From: Candidatus Sigynarchaeum calidifontis
GTDB lineage: Archaea; Asgardarchaeota; Lokiarchaeia; Sigyniarchaeales; Sigyniarchaeaceae
NCBI GenBank assembly: GCA_030587475.2
Contig: JAUQYZ020000050.1
Span: 1 to 36,337 of the forward strand
DNA: 36,337 nt
Reading direction: 5' to 3'
Shown here: piece by piece, positions 19,411-25,339 of the stretch
How the letters are laid out: every line of letters begins with the position of its first letter
Numbering within the stretch: position 1 is the first letter of the stretch
Notes under the pieces: model-generated
Databases searched by the model: none
What the model was told of the DNA's origin: nothing
Seen by the model: the letters and a program-made list of their open reading frames with translations, nothing else
Position numbers and translations under genes: made by a program

Positions 19411-19585
19411 AAAGTCTTCTTTCTTTTCTATTTCTAACGAAACAACTTCGCATTCGTCTTATCCTAGATAATGTGGAAGTTTGATTTATCAGCCATCGCG
19501 CGGTAAAATCTTGGCAATTTTCCAAGTTTGTCTGTTTTTTTAGTTAGAGCTTCAAATATATAAGAGAAATAAAATCACTATCGAC

Positions 19586-20596
19586 ATGTACATGTCTCCC
19601 GTGGATAATGACCCCATGTCGAACATCAGGGACCTGACCGTTTTTCAAAAAACGGACGACGTGTTCTTCTACAAGATAACCTGTAAAACAGGCTTGATAG
19701 TGGGGATGATTATATACGAGACCGTGCTAACGATCTTCACCCTTGTTACTTTTTTCCTTCCAGGCACATACGATATTTATCTCCAGCTAGCCGTGCGGAT
19801 TACTGCTCTTTCACTTCAAGTGTCGTTCACGATCCATTTCATTGCCGGGGCTCAAGTGACTACGATCTTCGTCAAGATCGACAAGGTATCGGGTATCGTG
19901 GCACGTTTAATGAAGAAAAAACCGTTTAAACCGTGGTACGTGGATATCGCACGCTTATCAACGATACGGAGTGTCGTGATACAAAAACTTACATATCCGA
20001 CTGAAACGCGCGGTCGCGGTGTCTATACGAGCGTGTCGCTTGATATGACATCGGGGATCATGGATATCCTTCCAGAGGCGAATTTCAAGCGGATGGAAGG
20101 ATTCCAGATGTTTATCGCCAGCTTTCTATGGGGATCGTTCCAAGAACCACGAGGCCCGACAGGATCTGCGCTTGAAAGAGTAACAGCTAGGATCCAGAGC
20201 CGGATCGATAATCCTGGCTTTCAAGAACCGCAAAAAGAGATTGATTGCCACTTTGAAGAGTTGAAGGCCACGATCCGGCGCATTAATCCTGGTGGACACG
20301 TAATGGGACATGCTCCCACGGCGTACAATAGCCGGTTCAAGAAAGAAATTACCCTCGTGCTTTCGGATCCTATTCATGATCGAATCGCTTTACAAAACAT
20401 TGAACGGGATCTAGGGCTTGAGGACACGGATAGAATGCGCGAGCGATTAATCGTGTTGTCCCGTGCGATAGAGCGCACCTTTGTGGCATCTAATATTCAT
20501 TCATTGCCAGAGAAAGTAGAAAGGATTTATATCCTGGTGCTTTTCTGCCTTGCCCGCGCCGCCAAGTTGCAACGGAGCCGTGATATCAAGCACTAG
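19586..20596 (+). CDS. Hypothetical protein with two N-terminal TM helices
   Basis: 336-aa ORF with two hydrophobic segments near aa 35-95 and a TATA-like sequence upstream. No motif recognised. Confidence 0.6.
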   Translation: MYMSPVDNDPMSNIRDLTVFQKTDDVFFYKITCKTGLIVGMIIYETVLTIFTLVTFFLPGTYDIYLQLAVRITALSLQVSFTIHFIAGAQVTTIFVKIDKVSGIVARLMKKKPFKPWYVDIARLSTIRSVVIQKLTYPTETRGRGVYTSVSLDMTSGIMDILPEANFKRMEGFQMFIASFLWGSFQEPRGPTGSALERVTARIQSRIDNPGFQEPQKEIDCHFEELKATIRRINPGGHVMGHAPTAYNSRFKKEITLVLSDPIHDRIALQNIERDLGLEDTDRMRERLIVLSRAIERTFVASNIHSLPEKVERIYILVLFCLARAAKLQRSRDIKH

Positions 20597-21126
20597 GCGC
20601 GTGACGAATTGAAAATTCACCAGCTTGCCATTGACTTGCCATAAAAAACTTTTAGATCTCCCGTGATTCAATCGGGAATTGCATCTATTAGATAATTCTT
20701 GTCGACCAGTATATCGCATATACGATCGGCTGCCTCTTACAGATGCAATAATCGAAATCTTTATACATCGAACGAGATCCATAAATGTCCAGGTTGCGAT
20801 TCATTCGCTTGCAAATCAAGACCACGAGGACATATTTGCTCTCTTGATATCGTTAGTTCGATATTATTTTGTAAATACGGGCCTTGGGAAAGTCTTTGGG
20901 TCGAGATTCGTGATGCAATTATCAAAAAAGGCATTTTTCATTTCAATCCTGCATCATCTTTGTCGCTGTTAATGTTCCATGGCAAAAAAAAAAAAATAAC
21001 TTAGGATGAGAAAAGACCGTCAATTCACTGGCCATCGATCGTGGCAATTCTCCGCTTCAGCGTGGATATGACCACGATGCCTCCATTCTCGTTACAATCG
21101 CCTCTGGATAGTTAAGATAGTGGCGC

Positions 21127-22353
21127 TCATCGTGCCGATGCACTGGCGATCTCGCTCGTCGATTGTCGAATCGATGAAAACGATCTTGCAAGGAACAGCA
21201 TTGCGAAGCACTGAATCACGACGACGAACACGAGACTCCAGATGAACGGTGCTCGAAGATCCGTGAAGGTGCCATACACGAGGCCACTCAAGACGAAACC
21301 AACGCCGTAAACCGTGTTGAATATGCCATAGGCCAAGCCTCGTGAAGATATCGGCGTGAGGTCCGCCACTGCCGCACGATAGATCGATTCTTGCATTCCA
21401 AGAACGACACCAAAGAAGATCGCTGCCCCGAAAAGCGAAATGACTTGGGTTTCTATCATGACCAGCAATGCAGGAAACAACGATAGCACGAAAGAAGAAA
21501 ACAAGACCTTTCTACCGAATTTATCATAAAGTATCCCGCTTATGAGTGCTACAGGGGCATCCACGCATTGGATGATCAAGTACACGAGGGGAACGACCCA
21601 GAGCATGCCGGTCGGTTTGAAAATTTCAGTAGCCTTGAAGAGAATCAAGGAGGCTGGTATAAGACCTGCCGTGTTCAAGAATACTGCTAAAGAGTAGATA
21701 TAGAACGACTTTCCAAGCTTGTACCTTTCTCTTGCAGCTTTCGGCTTTTCAGGAATGAAAATTGTCGGGCCGACACGTTTATAGGTGCAGGTCAAAACAA
21801 CAATGAGCATGAGAAACGGGATCGCGAGAAAGCCAAGCGACATGTTATAATTGTTGCCCGTGACGCCGATGATGACCGTCACGATGAGCGGGCCGATTAT
21901 CGCGCCGATTTGATCCAGCAATTCGTGGATACCGAACGCCTTGCCTGCTCCGACACCCTTGCTGATGAAGGACAAGACGGTGTCCCTCGATGGAGACCTG
22001 AACGCTTTCCCAACCCTTTCGGTTAGGACGAGTACAATGGCAATTTCAAGGCCAAGGGGAATTCCTAAGAAAGGGATTGCACCGATCAAGCCGTACCCTA
22101 TAAAAATGAATGTCCAATATGCCCGGGTGGAATCCGCAAGAAAACCACTCAACAACCGCAATGCATACCCTAAAAAATCCCCAAAGCCTCCGACCAGCCC
22201 GACGAGAACAGCGCTCGCGCCGAGGAATTCTAGATAACTCGGGACGATGCCTCGCGCTCCCTCGTAAACTATATCTCCCAGCAAACTCACGATCCCGAAG
22301 AGAAGGATACCGATCTTCGCAGCTTTCAACCGTTCACTTTCTTTTTCATTCAT
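21127..22353 (-). CDS. MFS transporter (12 TM)
   Basis: VSLLGDIVYEGARG, SGFLADS, ERVGKAFRSPSRD, GILYDKFGRK and SRGLAYGIFN motifs. Preceded by a fluoride riboswitch. Confidence 0.92.
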   Translation of the reverse strand: MNEKESERLKAAKIGILLFGIVSLLGDIVYEGARGIVPSYLEFLGASAVLVGLVGGFGDFLGYALRLLSGFLADSTRAYWTFIFIGYGLIGAIPFLGIPLGLEIAIVLVLTERVGKAFRSPSRDTVLSFISKGVGAGKAFGIHELLDQIGAIIGPLIVTVIIGVTGNNYNMSLGFLAIPFLMLIVVLTCTYKRVGPTIFIPEKPKAARERYKLGKSFYIYSLAVFLNTAGLIPASLILFKATEIFKPTGMLWVVPLVYLIIQCVDAPVALISGILYDKFGRKVLFSSFVLSLFPALLVMIETQVISLFGAAIFFGVVLGMQESIYRAAVADLTPISSRGLAYGIFNTVYGVGFVLSGLVYGTFTDLRAPFIWSLVFVVVIQCFAMLFLARSFSSIRQSTSEIASASAR

Positions 22354-22435
22354 CCCAACCGTTCTCCATCATTTTCGAGTTTTGTTACATCTACTTCGAA
22401 GAAAACAACCATTTTCATAATCTTTGGTTGTGCGT

Positions 22436-22503
22436 TTAGAAGCTATCAACCTTGCAAAAGGCAGTTTAGAAAGACCTCATTCTCGGAGGGCCTCATCTCC
22501 ATT
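22436..22503 (-). ncRNA. Fluoride riboswitch (crcB motif) upstream of the MFS gene
   Basis: Minus strand reads GGAGATGAGGCCCTCC-GAGAATGAGGTCTTTC-TAAACTGCC-TTTTGCAAGG-TTGATAGCTTCTA. P1 is GGAG/CTCC, with the conserved GATG and AAAC.GC, and pseudoknot GAGGC/GCTTC. Confidence 0.85.
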
Positions 22504-22835
22504 ATTCAGATGGTTACTGTTCATAAAAATGTTCTCAATCAACCCGATTGCATGTCGAGAATGGATGAAATATGAGTTTGATGGTGAAATCCAAGCAATT
22601 TCGATACAAAACGTATCAACATGCTTTGACTTGACGAGAGAACCACCAGTCATTTTTTTTGGCAAGAATCTTCTGTCTTCATGGTAGTCTGAGGCACAAG
22701 CATACTCTCGATGGATTCCATCAACCATGTCATGTTTCTAAATCATTCCAACCCTTTTTGGGATTAATGCTTGATAAAAAAGAGCTTGAATATGGAAAAA
22801 TGAAAAACATTAAAGGAACTAACGGAATTCAAATG

Positions 22836-22906
22836 AATGGAGATGAAGCTCTCCGAGAAAATTTTTTTTGTTCTAAACTGCCTTCTGAGAGGATGATAGC
22901 TTCTAC
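22836..22906 (+). ncRNA. Fluoride riboswitch (crcB motif) upstream of the short ORF / P-type ATPase
   Basis: GGAGATGAAGCTCTCC-GAGAAAATTTTTTTTGTTC-TAAACTGCC-TTCTGAGAGG-ATGATAGCTTCTAC. P1 is GGAGA/TCTCC and the pseudoknot is GAAGCT/AGCTTC. Confidence 0.88.
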
Positions 22907-22957
22907 CCAGAGCATCTTGTATAGTATCAAGCAATATAATTCAAGACGGTGAAGCTA

Positions 22958-23047
22958 ATGGCAACGAACGAACTCGATCAAGTGAAGATCTGGATTTACC
23001 GGAAGACCGGGATCTTAGGAAGGTCGGATCAAGCATTCAAGAAATAA
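22958..23047 (+). other. 29-codon ORF (MATNELDQVKIWIYRKTGILGRSDQAFKK) directly after the + riboswitch; leader peptide or gene remnant
   Basis: GGTGA SD at 22948-22952, ATG at 22958, TAA at 23045-47. Confidence 0.35.
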
Positions 23048-23130
23048 CGATTAGATGTAACTAATATTTCAAACAAATTTTTCGAAATCATCGCGTCTCA
23101 GCGAAAAAAAAAGCAAACAATCACCAGCAC

Positions 23131-24204
23131 GTGAATAAAACGATACACGAAAAGACTAACAAGAACATCGAACCCGAAGCGGATAACGCGCGCAAAGGAG
23201 ATATTCTCCTTTTACAGGCAGGCGATCTCGTCTCGGCCGATGTCAAGCTCATCGAAGCTAACGGTTTAGAAGTCGACGAGTTCGAGTTGACCGGGGAAAT
23301 TATGCCCGTGAAAAAGGAGATTGGTGAAGGAAAAGATATCAACGTGTATAATGGTAGTCGGGTGATAAGAGGGCATGCGAAGGGGGTCGTTATTGCAACC
23401 GGTGCAAAAACCGAGTACGGGGAAATCCTATCGATGCGCTACAGGCTAGTGAAGCGTAAAAATCCCCCCTTATTAAAAAAAAGGTTTTTTCTCTTACCCA
23501 TTCTCTTGATTCCGCATTTTCTAGTTGATTTCTTCATAGCTGGCGACCTTCTGCGCGGGTGTTTGATACACGTCGCAATCGCGTTCTTTCTCGTCTTTAT
23601 ACAGAATAGTGAATTGTTCAAATACATCCTTCTTTCACGTGAAGTTGAAAAATTGCAGACGAAACACGTCCAGTTCCATGACGAGACCGTATTGGAGGTT
23701 TTCGATTCCCTCGATGTTATCTGTTTCGACAAGACCGGAGTACTGACAACCCAAGACCTCGAAGTGAAGCAAGTCCATCTTGCCAACGGCACGCCGGATA
23801 AAGACTCGCGCATTTTCGACTTGATCCGCAATGCGTGTGCATTATGCAACGACATCGTCTTCTTGGAAAAGATAAAACATGCAGACCCCCTCGATAGAGC
23901 CATGTTATCCTTTGCATCAAGGAATGGTGTAGACATCTACGAGATCAAGTTGAAGTACAGGCGGATCTACGAGGAACCATTCGATTCAGAACGAAGGTAT
24001 ATGGCTTCTGGGTTTGAACTTGTTGGTGATAAAAAAAAACTATTCCTGGTAAAAGGAGATCCCGAGATCATAATGAAGATGTGTAAAACTTATATCACGT
24101 GCTCGGGAGACGAGAAAGAGATAGACCTGGATTTCATGACGGCGATTAATCCAAAAAACGAATCATTAAATGGCCCGATGGCCTTCCCGGGCAAGATCAC
24201 GTGA
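23131..24204 (+). pseudogene. Truncated cation-transporting P-type ATPase (A domain, phosphorylation site, part of N domain)
   Basis: GDLVSADVKL, DEFELTGE, ICFDKTGVLT, DPLDRAML, PFDSERRYM and VKGDPE are present. The ORF stops before the DPPR/TGD/GDGxND motifs and the C-terminal TM helices. Confidence 0.75.
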
Positions 24205-24213
24205 TGTATCCAA

Positions 24214-24408
24214 TTACTTGAAGGAGGGCATAACCGGCTTTACCGGCTTGCTAACGTTGCTTTTTGCCTTTGCATCTGCCGATGCTTGTACCTTCAATTT
24301 CTCCTTCTCGAGCATGTCGATGCATTCTTTTAGCTGGAAGATCGCATCATCGTACGTACCCGCTTTTATGAGAAGCTTTACCGAGTCGAGGATTTCTTCT
24401 ACGCTCAT
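24214..24408 (-). CDS. Small hypothetical helical protein (64 aa)
   Basis: MSVEEILDSVKLLIKAGTYDDAIFQLKECIDMLEKEK..., helical-hairpin/TPR-like. Likely start 24408. Confidence 0.5.
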   Translation of the reverse strand: MSVEEILDSVKLLIKAGTYDDAIFQLKECIDMLEKEKLKVQASADAKAKSNVSKPVKPVMPSFK

Positions 24409-24622
24409 GGGATTCACACGATATCTCTGCTTTTTTATCGCATGGAGTGATTTCTTTTTGAACAATATAATATCCTTTTCTTTGTTAATCACAAGTATGA
24501 AAGTTTTTCTCGCAGCGTAACTTCTCAAAAACAAAATGACTCGTACGATCGGGCCGCGGGGCGTGCTTCTTCCTGCTCGGGGAATCTATAATTAAAAAGA
24601 AGACTATCCGGAGAAACGCAAA

Positions 24623-25339
24623 ATGCAATTCAAGTTTGATCCACACATCCACACGAGATTTTCCGATGGAACTATCTTCTATAACGGCATTGCCGATCTC
24701 AAGTACTTGGTCAAGCGGGACAAGATCACGGCATTCACGGTCACTGATCACAACACGACCCGCGGCGTGAAGTACGCAAGGCGGGTTTGCGAGTCGCTTG
24801 GCCTTGTTTTCATCCCTGGCATCGAAATCTCGGCAAAAGAGGGCCACCTCGTTGCCTACGGGCTCTTGGAATGGAACAAAGGCGCATACCAGCTAACGGT
24901 CGACGAGGTAATCGACGCGTGCCGTGCGGCAGGTTCGGTGATCGTCGTCGCGCACCCGATGGACAGGCGCATGGGGATCAAGCAACTCATGTTCGAGCCG
25001 AGGATCTACAAGCGGGTCGACGGTTTCGAGTATTACAACGGCGCCACGCCGCTCAATGCGGTTCACCTGAACAAGCACGGTATCCAGCAACTCCATGGCC
25101 TTTGCAGGTATGCTGGATCGGACTGCCACTCGCGCGTACTTTTCTGCAAGTTCCACGTGCTAGTCGATGCAGCATCAAGCAAGCTCGACGACATCCTCGA
25201 TGCAATGCGCGACAAGCGAAATGTAACCGCTGTCGGCCCGGTCATGGATATCCCGCATTGGATCGCGGATTTCCCGCCCGCATTCACCCGCCGCCGCGAG
25301 ATAAAGCGGTTAGAACGACTTGGTAAGGTAACAGATTAA
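24623..25339 (+). CDS. PHP-domain metal-dependent phosphoesterase
   Basis: DPHIHTRFSDG, VTDHN, IPGIEIS, GH, VAHP and GSDCH motifs. Confidence 0.9.
   Translation: MQFKFDPHIHTRFSDGTIFYNGIADLKYLVKRDKITAFTVTDHNTTRGVKYARRVCESLGLVFIPGIEISAKEGHLVAYGLLEWNKGAYQLTVDEVIDACRAAGSVIVVAHPMDRRMGIKQLMFEPRIYKRVDGFEYYNGATPLNAVHLNKHGIQQLHGLCRYAGSDCHSRVLFCKFHVLVDAASSKLDDILDAMRDKRNVTAVGPVMDIPHWIADFPPAFTRRREIKRLERLGKVTD

Follow-up and report, generated by a model that had tools for sequence, protein, structure and literature searches.

A pair of divergently oriented fluoride riboswitch aptamers lies in a 36,337-nt stretch of DNA (hereafter the window), which is contig C129 of an Asgard archaeal assembly of 5.0 Mb in 269 contigs that is 89% complete. 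Both aptamers are very probably ordinary members of the crcB motif family (RF01734) that carry an optional hairpin; a single promoter-plus-aptamer unit would have given rise to both by inverted duplication, and each would now stand at the head of one of two divergent transcripts. Family membership by score, the helices with their covariation and the gene contexts were observed directly; binding of fluoride, the ON logic, control at translation, the promoters and the part played by the MFS permease are predictions. Few riboswitch classes are common to bacteria and archaea, and the fluoride riboswitches are among them; those described here belong to this known class and are not a new structural variant, in a lineage for which our literature search found no paper treating riboswitches, fluoride and Asgard archaea together. 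The Asgard-like host proposed in the initial annotation of the window agrees with the acetyl-CoA synthetase encoded in it, which is 74% identical to the protein of a 'Promethearchaeota archaeon' metagenome-assembled genome and 71% identical to that of a 'Candidatus Heimdallarchaeota archaeon' chromosome; the phylum Promethearchaeota belongs to the kingdom Promethearchaeati, which comprises the Asgard archaea.

The presence of two crcB-class aptamers on opposite strands, as first annotated, is borne out by covariance-model searches, which gave an RF01734 match on each strand, well outside what chance would produce. When the window was searched against all families of Rfam 15 at the curated thresholds using cmscan, the aptamer on the forward strand (the + copy) was the sole match; its score of 38.8 bits exceeds the gathering score of 34, with an E value of 1.9e-7 for a search of the full window. 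A permissive cmscan of positions 22300-23200 returned the aptamer on the reverse strand (the - copy) at 30.6 bits, with an E value of 2.2e-6 in this 901-nt search and of 2.9e-6 genome-wide; it falls below the gathering score because of the penalty for its insert (see below) and two substitutions in its pseudoknot strand. Both alignments span the full model (positions 1-64), and the conserved unpaired nucleotides, i.e. GAUG in the P1 loop, AAC in the linker and UGAU before the pseudoknot strand, are unchanged in both copies. The P1 helix (4 bp closing an 8-nt loop) and the P2 helix are likewise present in both, and so are all the elements listed in the initial annotation, namely P1, GAUG, UAAACUGCC, P2 (there called 'P3') and UGAUAGCUUCUA (Table 1). 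Relative to the Rfam consensus GGAGUU/GACUCC, the pseudoknot of both copies is altered on both strands in a compensating manner, and the subtype GAAGCU/AGCUUC is common among the archaeal matches that we collected. In the - copy five of the six pseudoknot positions are paired by inspection, one of them as G.U, and the terminal position is a C.A mismatch.

Table 1. Features of the divergent aptamer pair and of its two arms (positions are those of the window; paired strands are separated by a slash)
Feature	Position	Strand	Details
MFS permease	21127-22353	-	intact, 408 aa; Pfam MFS_1 6.9e-17
Leader of - copy	22398-22444	-	hairpin ACAACCA 22431-22425 / UGGUUGU 22411-22405, then UUUUCUU
RF01734 match, - copy	22430-22509	-	
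Pseudoknot, - copy	22494-22489 / 22444-22439	-	GAGGCC / AGCUUC
P2, - copy	22462-22459 / 22452-22449	-	GCCU / AGGU; outer pair G.U
P1a, - copy	22483-22480 / 22471-22468	-	AGAA / UUCU
P1, - copy	22500-22497 / 22488-22485	-	GGAG / CUCC
Spacer between divergent units	22510-22829		320 nt
TATA-like AT-rich element, - unit	22529-22522	-	UUUUUAUG; about 22-31 nt upstream of P1
TATA-like AT-rich element, + unit	22808-22815	+	CAUUAAAG; about 22-31 nt upstream of P1
RF01734 match, + copy	22830-22912	+	
P1, + copy	22839-22842 / 22851-22854	+	GGAG / CUCC
P1 loop, + copy		+	AUGAAGCU, includes conserved GAUG
Pseudoknot, + copy	22845-22850 / 22898-22903	+	GAAGCU / AGCUUC, after UGAU; 6/6 Watson-Crick by inspection
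P1a (optional hairpin), + copy	22856-22859 / 22871-22874	+	AGAA / UUCU; 11-nt loop
U8 run	22862-22869	+	inside the P1a loop of the + copy
Linker, + copy	22875-22879	+	AAACU
P2, + copy	22880-22883 / 22890-22893	+	GCCU / AGGA; outer pair is a G.A mismatch (cmscan NC mark)
Predicted expression platform, + copy	22897-22957	+	UAGCUUCUACC 22897-22907 pairs with GGUGAAGCUA 22948-22957
29-codon ORF	22958-23047	+	MATNELDQVKIWIYRKTGILGRSDQAFKK; first reading frame, 45 nt after the + aptamer (ORF list)
T5 run	23076-23080	+	after the 29-codon ORF
A9 run	23103-23111		just before the ATPase fragment
Type-II P-type ATPase fragment	23131-24204	+	357 aa; Pfam E1-E2_ATPase, Cation_ATPase

The closest genomic relative of each copy is the other; the term 'near-identical' that had been applied to them is somewhat generous, as they share 78.6% identity over 70 nt. 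They give two inverted repeats, one of 35 nt (89%) and one of 24 nt (92%). Their divergent orientation is as annotated: each lies, in the sense orientation, within the 5' leader of a separate gene. The two units can also be aligned at the sequence AACAUU, which lies at an equal distance from P1 in both, and each has a TATA-like element upstream; judged from the sequence, these elements would fit putative promoters whose transcripts would start just before P1. The spacer ORFs, which overlap the aptamers, are without support, and a scan for bacterial-type promoters and terminators gave nothing useful. A DNA search for the locus gave no match in one genome of the same genus and in two of the same family, and these three genomes thus offer no close counterpart with which the leaders could be compared. 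The G+C content is 0.40-0.50 over positions 19500-24500 of the window versus 0.52-0.60 on both sides, and the nearest relatives of the MFS gene are found in other Asgard families; the MFS-riboswitch-ATPase stretch may be an acquired island.

Directly after the P1 3' strand and before the AAAC linker, both copies carry an insert that can form a 4-bp stem AGAA/UUCU (P1a); cmscan puts its length at 18 nt for the + copy and at 15 nt for the - copy. The insert and its capacity to form an extra stem had been noticed in the initial annotation, with a slightly different length (16-19 nt), and had been interpreted as a structural variant of the aptamer. This interpretation does not hold, as an optional helix is marked at the same site in the original crcB alignment (crcB.sto, supplement of Weinberg et al. 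2010, PMC2864571), whose SS_cons line places it between P1 and the AAA/GAA linker. In that alignment it is carried by about 17 of 58 rows examined, or about three in ten, including those of Methanosarcina barkeri, M. acetivorans, Pyrococcus, Picrophilus, mycobacteria, Gloeobacter and Zymomonas.

Similar hairpins were found at the same insertion site in a third copy of the host genome on contig C214 (AGAC/GUCU; 32.8 bits) and in a genome of the same order, G027 (CAGACCG/CGGUCUG, UGGCA/UGCCA and AGAU/AUCU). From six sequences, i.e. the two window copies and those of C214 and G027, we have built our own covariance model, R1, against which the + copy scores 78.5 bits, and a search with R1 revealed more hairpin-bearing copies in other Asgard families, including two 1.4-Mb genomes with the hairpin GGGU-GUAA-GCCU. 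RF01734 matches from 150 Thermoplasmatota-type and 150 Thermoproteota-type genomes were also aligned to R1, and the hairpin was seen among these as well. In total, P1a is present in 17 of the 52 archaeal fluoride riboswitches collected, with stems as diverse as GGGC/GCCC, UGGC/GCCA and GGCA/UGCC. Over these 52 sequences, 98% of the cells are paired overall (P1, 99.5%; P2, 98.0%; pseudoknot, 98.4%; P1a, 92.6%), and both-sided changes occur in 14 of 18 pairs, with three to five such pairs per helix, five of six in the pseudoknot and three of four in P1a; these counts lean towards the model, since the alignment was fitted to it. The observed pairing values were reached by none of 500 shuffles, and in slid controls pairing dropped to 36-59%. 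The P1a hairpin is a long-documented optional element of the family rather than a new architecture; without a new aptamer form to its credit, the pair loses much of the surprise that it first held. A scan of 596 Gb of contigs with the 16-mer GGAGATGAAGCTCTCC gave at least 120 matches, mostly by chance and in unrelated bacteria, the pattern being too short; this result was set aside, apart from some of the matching loci, which served as handles for other phyla.

In the leader of the + unit, the predicted expression platform brings the pseudoknot 3' strand, contained in UAGCUUCUACC, into pairing with GGUGAAGCUA, which contains a Shine-Dalgarno-like GGUGA just before the AUG at position 22958. 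This helix appears in the unconstrained minimum free energy fold of the leader. Its duplex energy is -13.3 kcal/mol, a value that only 5 of 300 shuffles attain, and over the 230 nt downstream the pseudoknot strand has no better partner. Furthermore, the leader folds at -23.4 kcal/mol when the pseudoknot strand is free and at -14.8 kcal/mol when it is blocked, and with blocking the ribosome-site GGUGA is released from pairing. A translational ON switch is predicted for the + unit, since the pseudoknot strand would sequester the ribosome site: fluoride, together with Mg2+, would lock the pseudoknot of the P1 loop with the 3' tail, which would otherwise be paired to the ribosome-binding site of the first ORF, so that binding of the ligand would free GGUGA and the AUG for translation. 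In the C214 copy, the 3' tail CUGCCAUCAC is complementary at 9 of 10 positions to GUGAUUGCAG at its own Shine-Dalgarno sequence (by inspection, without statistics).

The 29-codon ORF has no copy or relative elsewhere in the genome by tblastn, and it shows no similarity to other riboswitch-controlled proteins. Remnants of crcB, of an Na+/H+ exchanger, of the MFS gene, of the prenyltransferase-like gene and of the two unknown riboswitch-linked proteins (see below) were looked for in this ORF and over positions 22900-24700, and were rejected for want of significant similarity. The ATPase ORF that follows comprises only an A domain, two hydrophobic segments, the DKTGVLT motif and an N domain, TGEI and DKTGVLT being variant motifs, and it corresponds to positions 137-467 of the 854 positions of the NCBIfam model. 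All its homologues in 200 Asgard genomes have a length of about 900 aa, and none exceeds 36% identity to the fragment; a full-length homologue aligns to the window by tblastn only at residues 141-468, and the N- and C-terminal parts were found in no frame of the window. The ORF is probably a gene remnant, or else a very unusual truncated protein. The + arm, which now appears to lead only to the 29-codon ORF and this truncated P-type ATPase, looks decayed. Archaeal transcription is terminated by oligo-T tracts, and the U8 run inside the P1a loop of the + copy could end transcription within the aptamer; against this, U5 runs are also present in related aptamers of its clade. The U8, T5 and A9 runs of this region (Table 1) may be signals for termination in archaea, or else places where assembly errors are likely.

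The - unit, on the other hand, precedes an intact MFS permease gene, the start codon of which lies 76 nt downstream of the aptamer, and whose product has only weak drug/H+ antiporter-like matches in NCBIfam. The hairpin in its leader (inverted repeat I4) is weak, at -5.8 kcal/mol. Around this hairpin an alternative 5-bp pairing of the pseudoknot strand GCUUC with GAAGU (about 22397-22393) can form, with constrained folds at -26.2 versus -24.5 kcal/mol; this pairing, at -5.7 kcal/mol, is at chance level, 243 of 300 shuffles reaching the best value of -5.8 kcal/mol, and nothing above chance was found for a Shine-Dalgarno-sequestering or terminator platform in the - leader. The permease is presumably induced by fluoride, by a read-out mechanism that is not evident from the sequence. 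Of the bidirectional fluoride-responsive regulon proposed in the initial annotation, the two divergent leaders are borne out, whereas the word 'regulon' is generous for a locus in which one arm consists of a 29-codon ORF and an ATPase fragment.

It is possible, if somewhat unlikely, that only one of the two switches still works, either because the + unit is a decaying duplicate that has lost its cargo or because the - aptamer is drifting and has become uncoupled. The truncation of the ATPase to residues 141-468, the orphan status of the 29-codon ORF and the U8 run inside the aptamer would fit the former, and the sub-threshold score, the weakened pseudoknot and the lack of a significant alternative pairing would fit the latter. 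Every conserved nucleotide and all helices, however, are kept in both copies; the + unit retains a strong and specific Shine-Dalgarno-sequestering helix, which would be expected to decay if it were unused, and the gene behind the - unit is intact and normally spaced from it.

A further question is whether the - riboswitch controls a new fluoride-resistance transporter, i.e. whether the MFS permease exports fluoride or relieves fluoride stress in Asgard archaea without Fluc (CrcB) and CLC-F, which we consider rather unlikely. No CrcB or CLC was found in the host genome, which is 89% complete; yet, of 301 Asgard genomes sampled, no more than 23 were found to have CrcB/Fluc (PF02537), and these are concentrated in a few families (e.g. 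9 of 11 genomes of family f16), so its absence says little. We had considered the CrcB/CLC absence as evidence for an MFS exporter and set it aside, CrcB being missing from about 92% of the sampled Asgard genomes anyway. Many Asgard families outside the window's own order have orthologues of the permease, at 40-53% identity, and within 1.5 kb of the closest of these (45-53% identical, in about 20 genomes) there is no riboswitch. In the genus g39, whose genomes also lack CrcB but contain CLC, an MFS homologue that is 39-40% identical (L224 1468-2667) lies about 160 nt behind a fluoride riboswitch, which is canonical, hairpin-less and of a different subtype, with scores of 59.8, 26.7 and 23.0 bits in three genomes. 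The arrangement there, on one strand (L224:1247-3741, G118:C122; L223, L225), is a riboswitch, the MFS homologue, a second riboswitch and a prenyltransferase-like gene. Related MFS genes in two Asgard genera are preceded by two different aptamer subtypes, and our search found no paper on MFS genes linked to a fluoride riboswitch. This second association favours a role of the permease in fluoride resistance; against it, besides the CLC of the g39 genomes and the closest orthologues without a riboswitch, no MFS gene lies behind any of 40 non-Asgard archaeal riboswitch loci, and the permease resembles generic drug/H+ antiporters. That this MFS family was recruited twice, by two fluoride-riboswitch subtypes in two Asgard genera, as an exporter of fluoride or of something related to fluoride appears distinctly unlikely. 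CrcB and EriC-F were reportedly recognised through the link of their genes to the riboswitch; riboswitch-linked genes are a proven guide to fluoride-resistance functions, and the riboswitch-linked permease of the two genera is therefore a testable candidate for fluoride resistance.

It is highly improbable that the two RF01734 matches are chance look-alikes or recognise another ligand: one copy does score under the curated cut-off, and the downstream genes are atypical, neither the MFS permease of the - arm nor the short ORF and P-type ATPase fragment of the + arm being a validated fluoride gene, but the E values of 1.9e-7 and 2.2e-6, the compensated pseudoknot, the unchanged GAUG, AAC and UGAU, and the same-subtype homologues that precede crcB in other Asgard genomes all argue against it.

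Fluoride riboswitches occur in Asgard archaea, though sparsely: RF01734 was found in 6 of 41 close relatives (E <= 0.01), and R1 matches in 8 of 151 sampled genomes across the Asgard phylum. The hairpin-bearing copies elsewhere in Asgard archaea precede crcB, with or without DUF190, or an Na+/H+ exchanger, and crcB and the Na+/H+ exchanger are classical fluoride genes. The third aptamer of the host genome (L002:976-1058; G000:C214, - strand) precedes a 245-aa protein (L002:210-947) without Pfam or NCBIfam match, and falls under the Rfam cut-off because of its optional hairpin. Routine annotation pipelines will miss both this copy and the - copy of the window, which score below the cut-off. In G027, two direct aptamers of 42.4 and 34.3 bits, both with P1a, lie 1-2 nt apart (L012:1427-1583; G027:C151:5062-5218, - strand) upstream of a 159-aa protein, also without Pfam or NCBIfam match; the two unknown proteins behind these riboswitches of the clade are unrelated to each other. 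A weak RF01734 match in the host genome (L004:668-773; G000:C19; 22.6 bits) has canonical P1 and pseudoknot strands, with 54 nt in place of P2, and may be a degenerate or long-P2 copy; the ORFs downstream of it have no family match. In our archaeal sample, the commonest gene directly behind a fluoride riboswitch, at 24 of 42 loci (L168-L192 and others, alignment A7; L140-L142), encodes a protein of about 285 aa with a Prenyltrans alpha-alpha toroid domain; one of these loci belongs to the Asgard genus g39 and the rest are mostly of Thermoproteota type. To our knowledge, there is no described link between this protein and fluoride. The biological value of the Asgard fluoride riboswitches lies in the genes that they mark.

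The window copies share with the crcB motif (RF01734; PMC2864571) the P1 helix with its 8-nt loop, the AAC linker, P2, the pseudoknot, GAUG and UGAU, as well as the position in a 5' leader and the optional helix that separates P1 from the linker, and they show no structural difference; what differs is the sequence of the pseudoknot and the genes downstream, which are usually crcB, eriC or antiporter genes in RF01734. Genes linked to fluoride toxicity include crcB, eriC-F, those for Na+/H+ antiporters and enolase, and others. The closest likenesses for the hairpin in that alignment are those of M. barkeri (NC_007355.1/4790369-4790299; AGAU...GUCU) and M. acetivorans (NC_003552.1/4831358-4831427; UGAU...GUCA), each with a 4-bp hairpin at the same site followed by AAACC. 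Their stems are almost the same as those of the window copies, whereas their P2 is shorter and their tail is the canonical GAUGACUUCU, and they belong to Euryarchaeota, not to the Asgard archaea. The fluoride riboswitch of Thermococcus kodakarensis, the transcript of which has been described (PMC4247193), is cited as the one natural riboswitch of an archaeon to have been tested in vivo, and presumably acts on translation (Speed et al. 2018, cited in PMC8241225). Like the window copies, it lies upstream of a non-crcB gene (TK0513); unlike the window pair, it is a single copy adjoining a crcB gene. Among the Asgard archaea themselves, other copies (L137, L138, L139, L143, L013 and L012) show the same architecture, including P1a with the stems CGAU/AUCG, UGGC/GCCA, AGAU/AUCU and GGGU-GUAA-GCCU; they differ in that the start codon follows the aptamer after only 4-16 nt, the genes concerned being crcB with or without DUF190, or the Na+/H+ exchanger. 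The pair of G027, finally, is arranged in tandem, in contrast to the divergent pair of the window.
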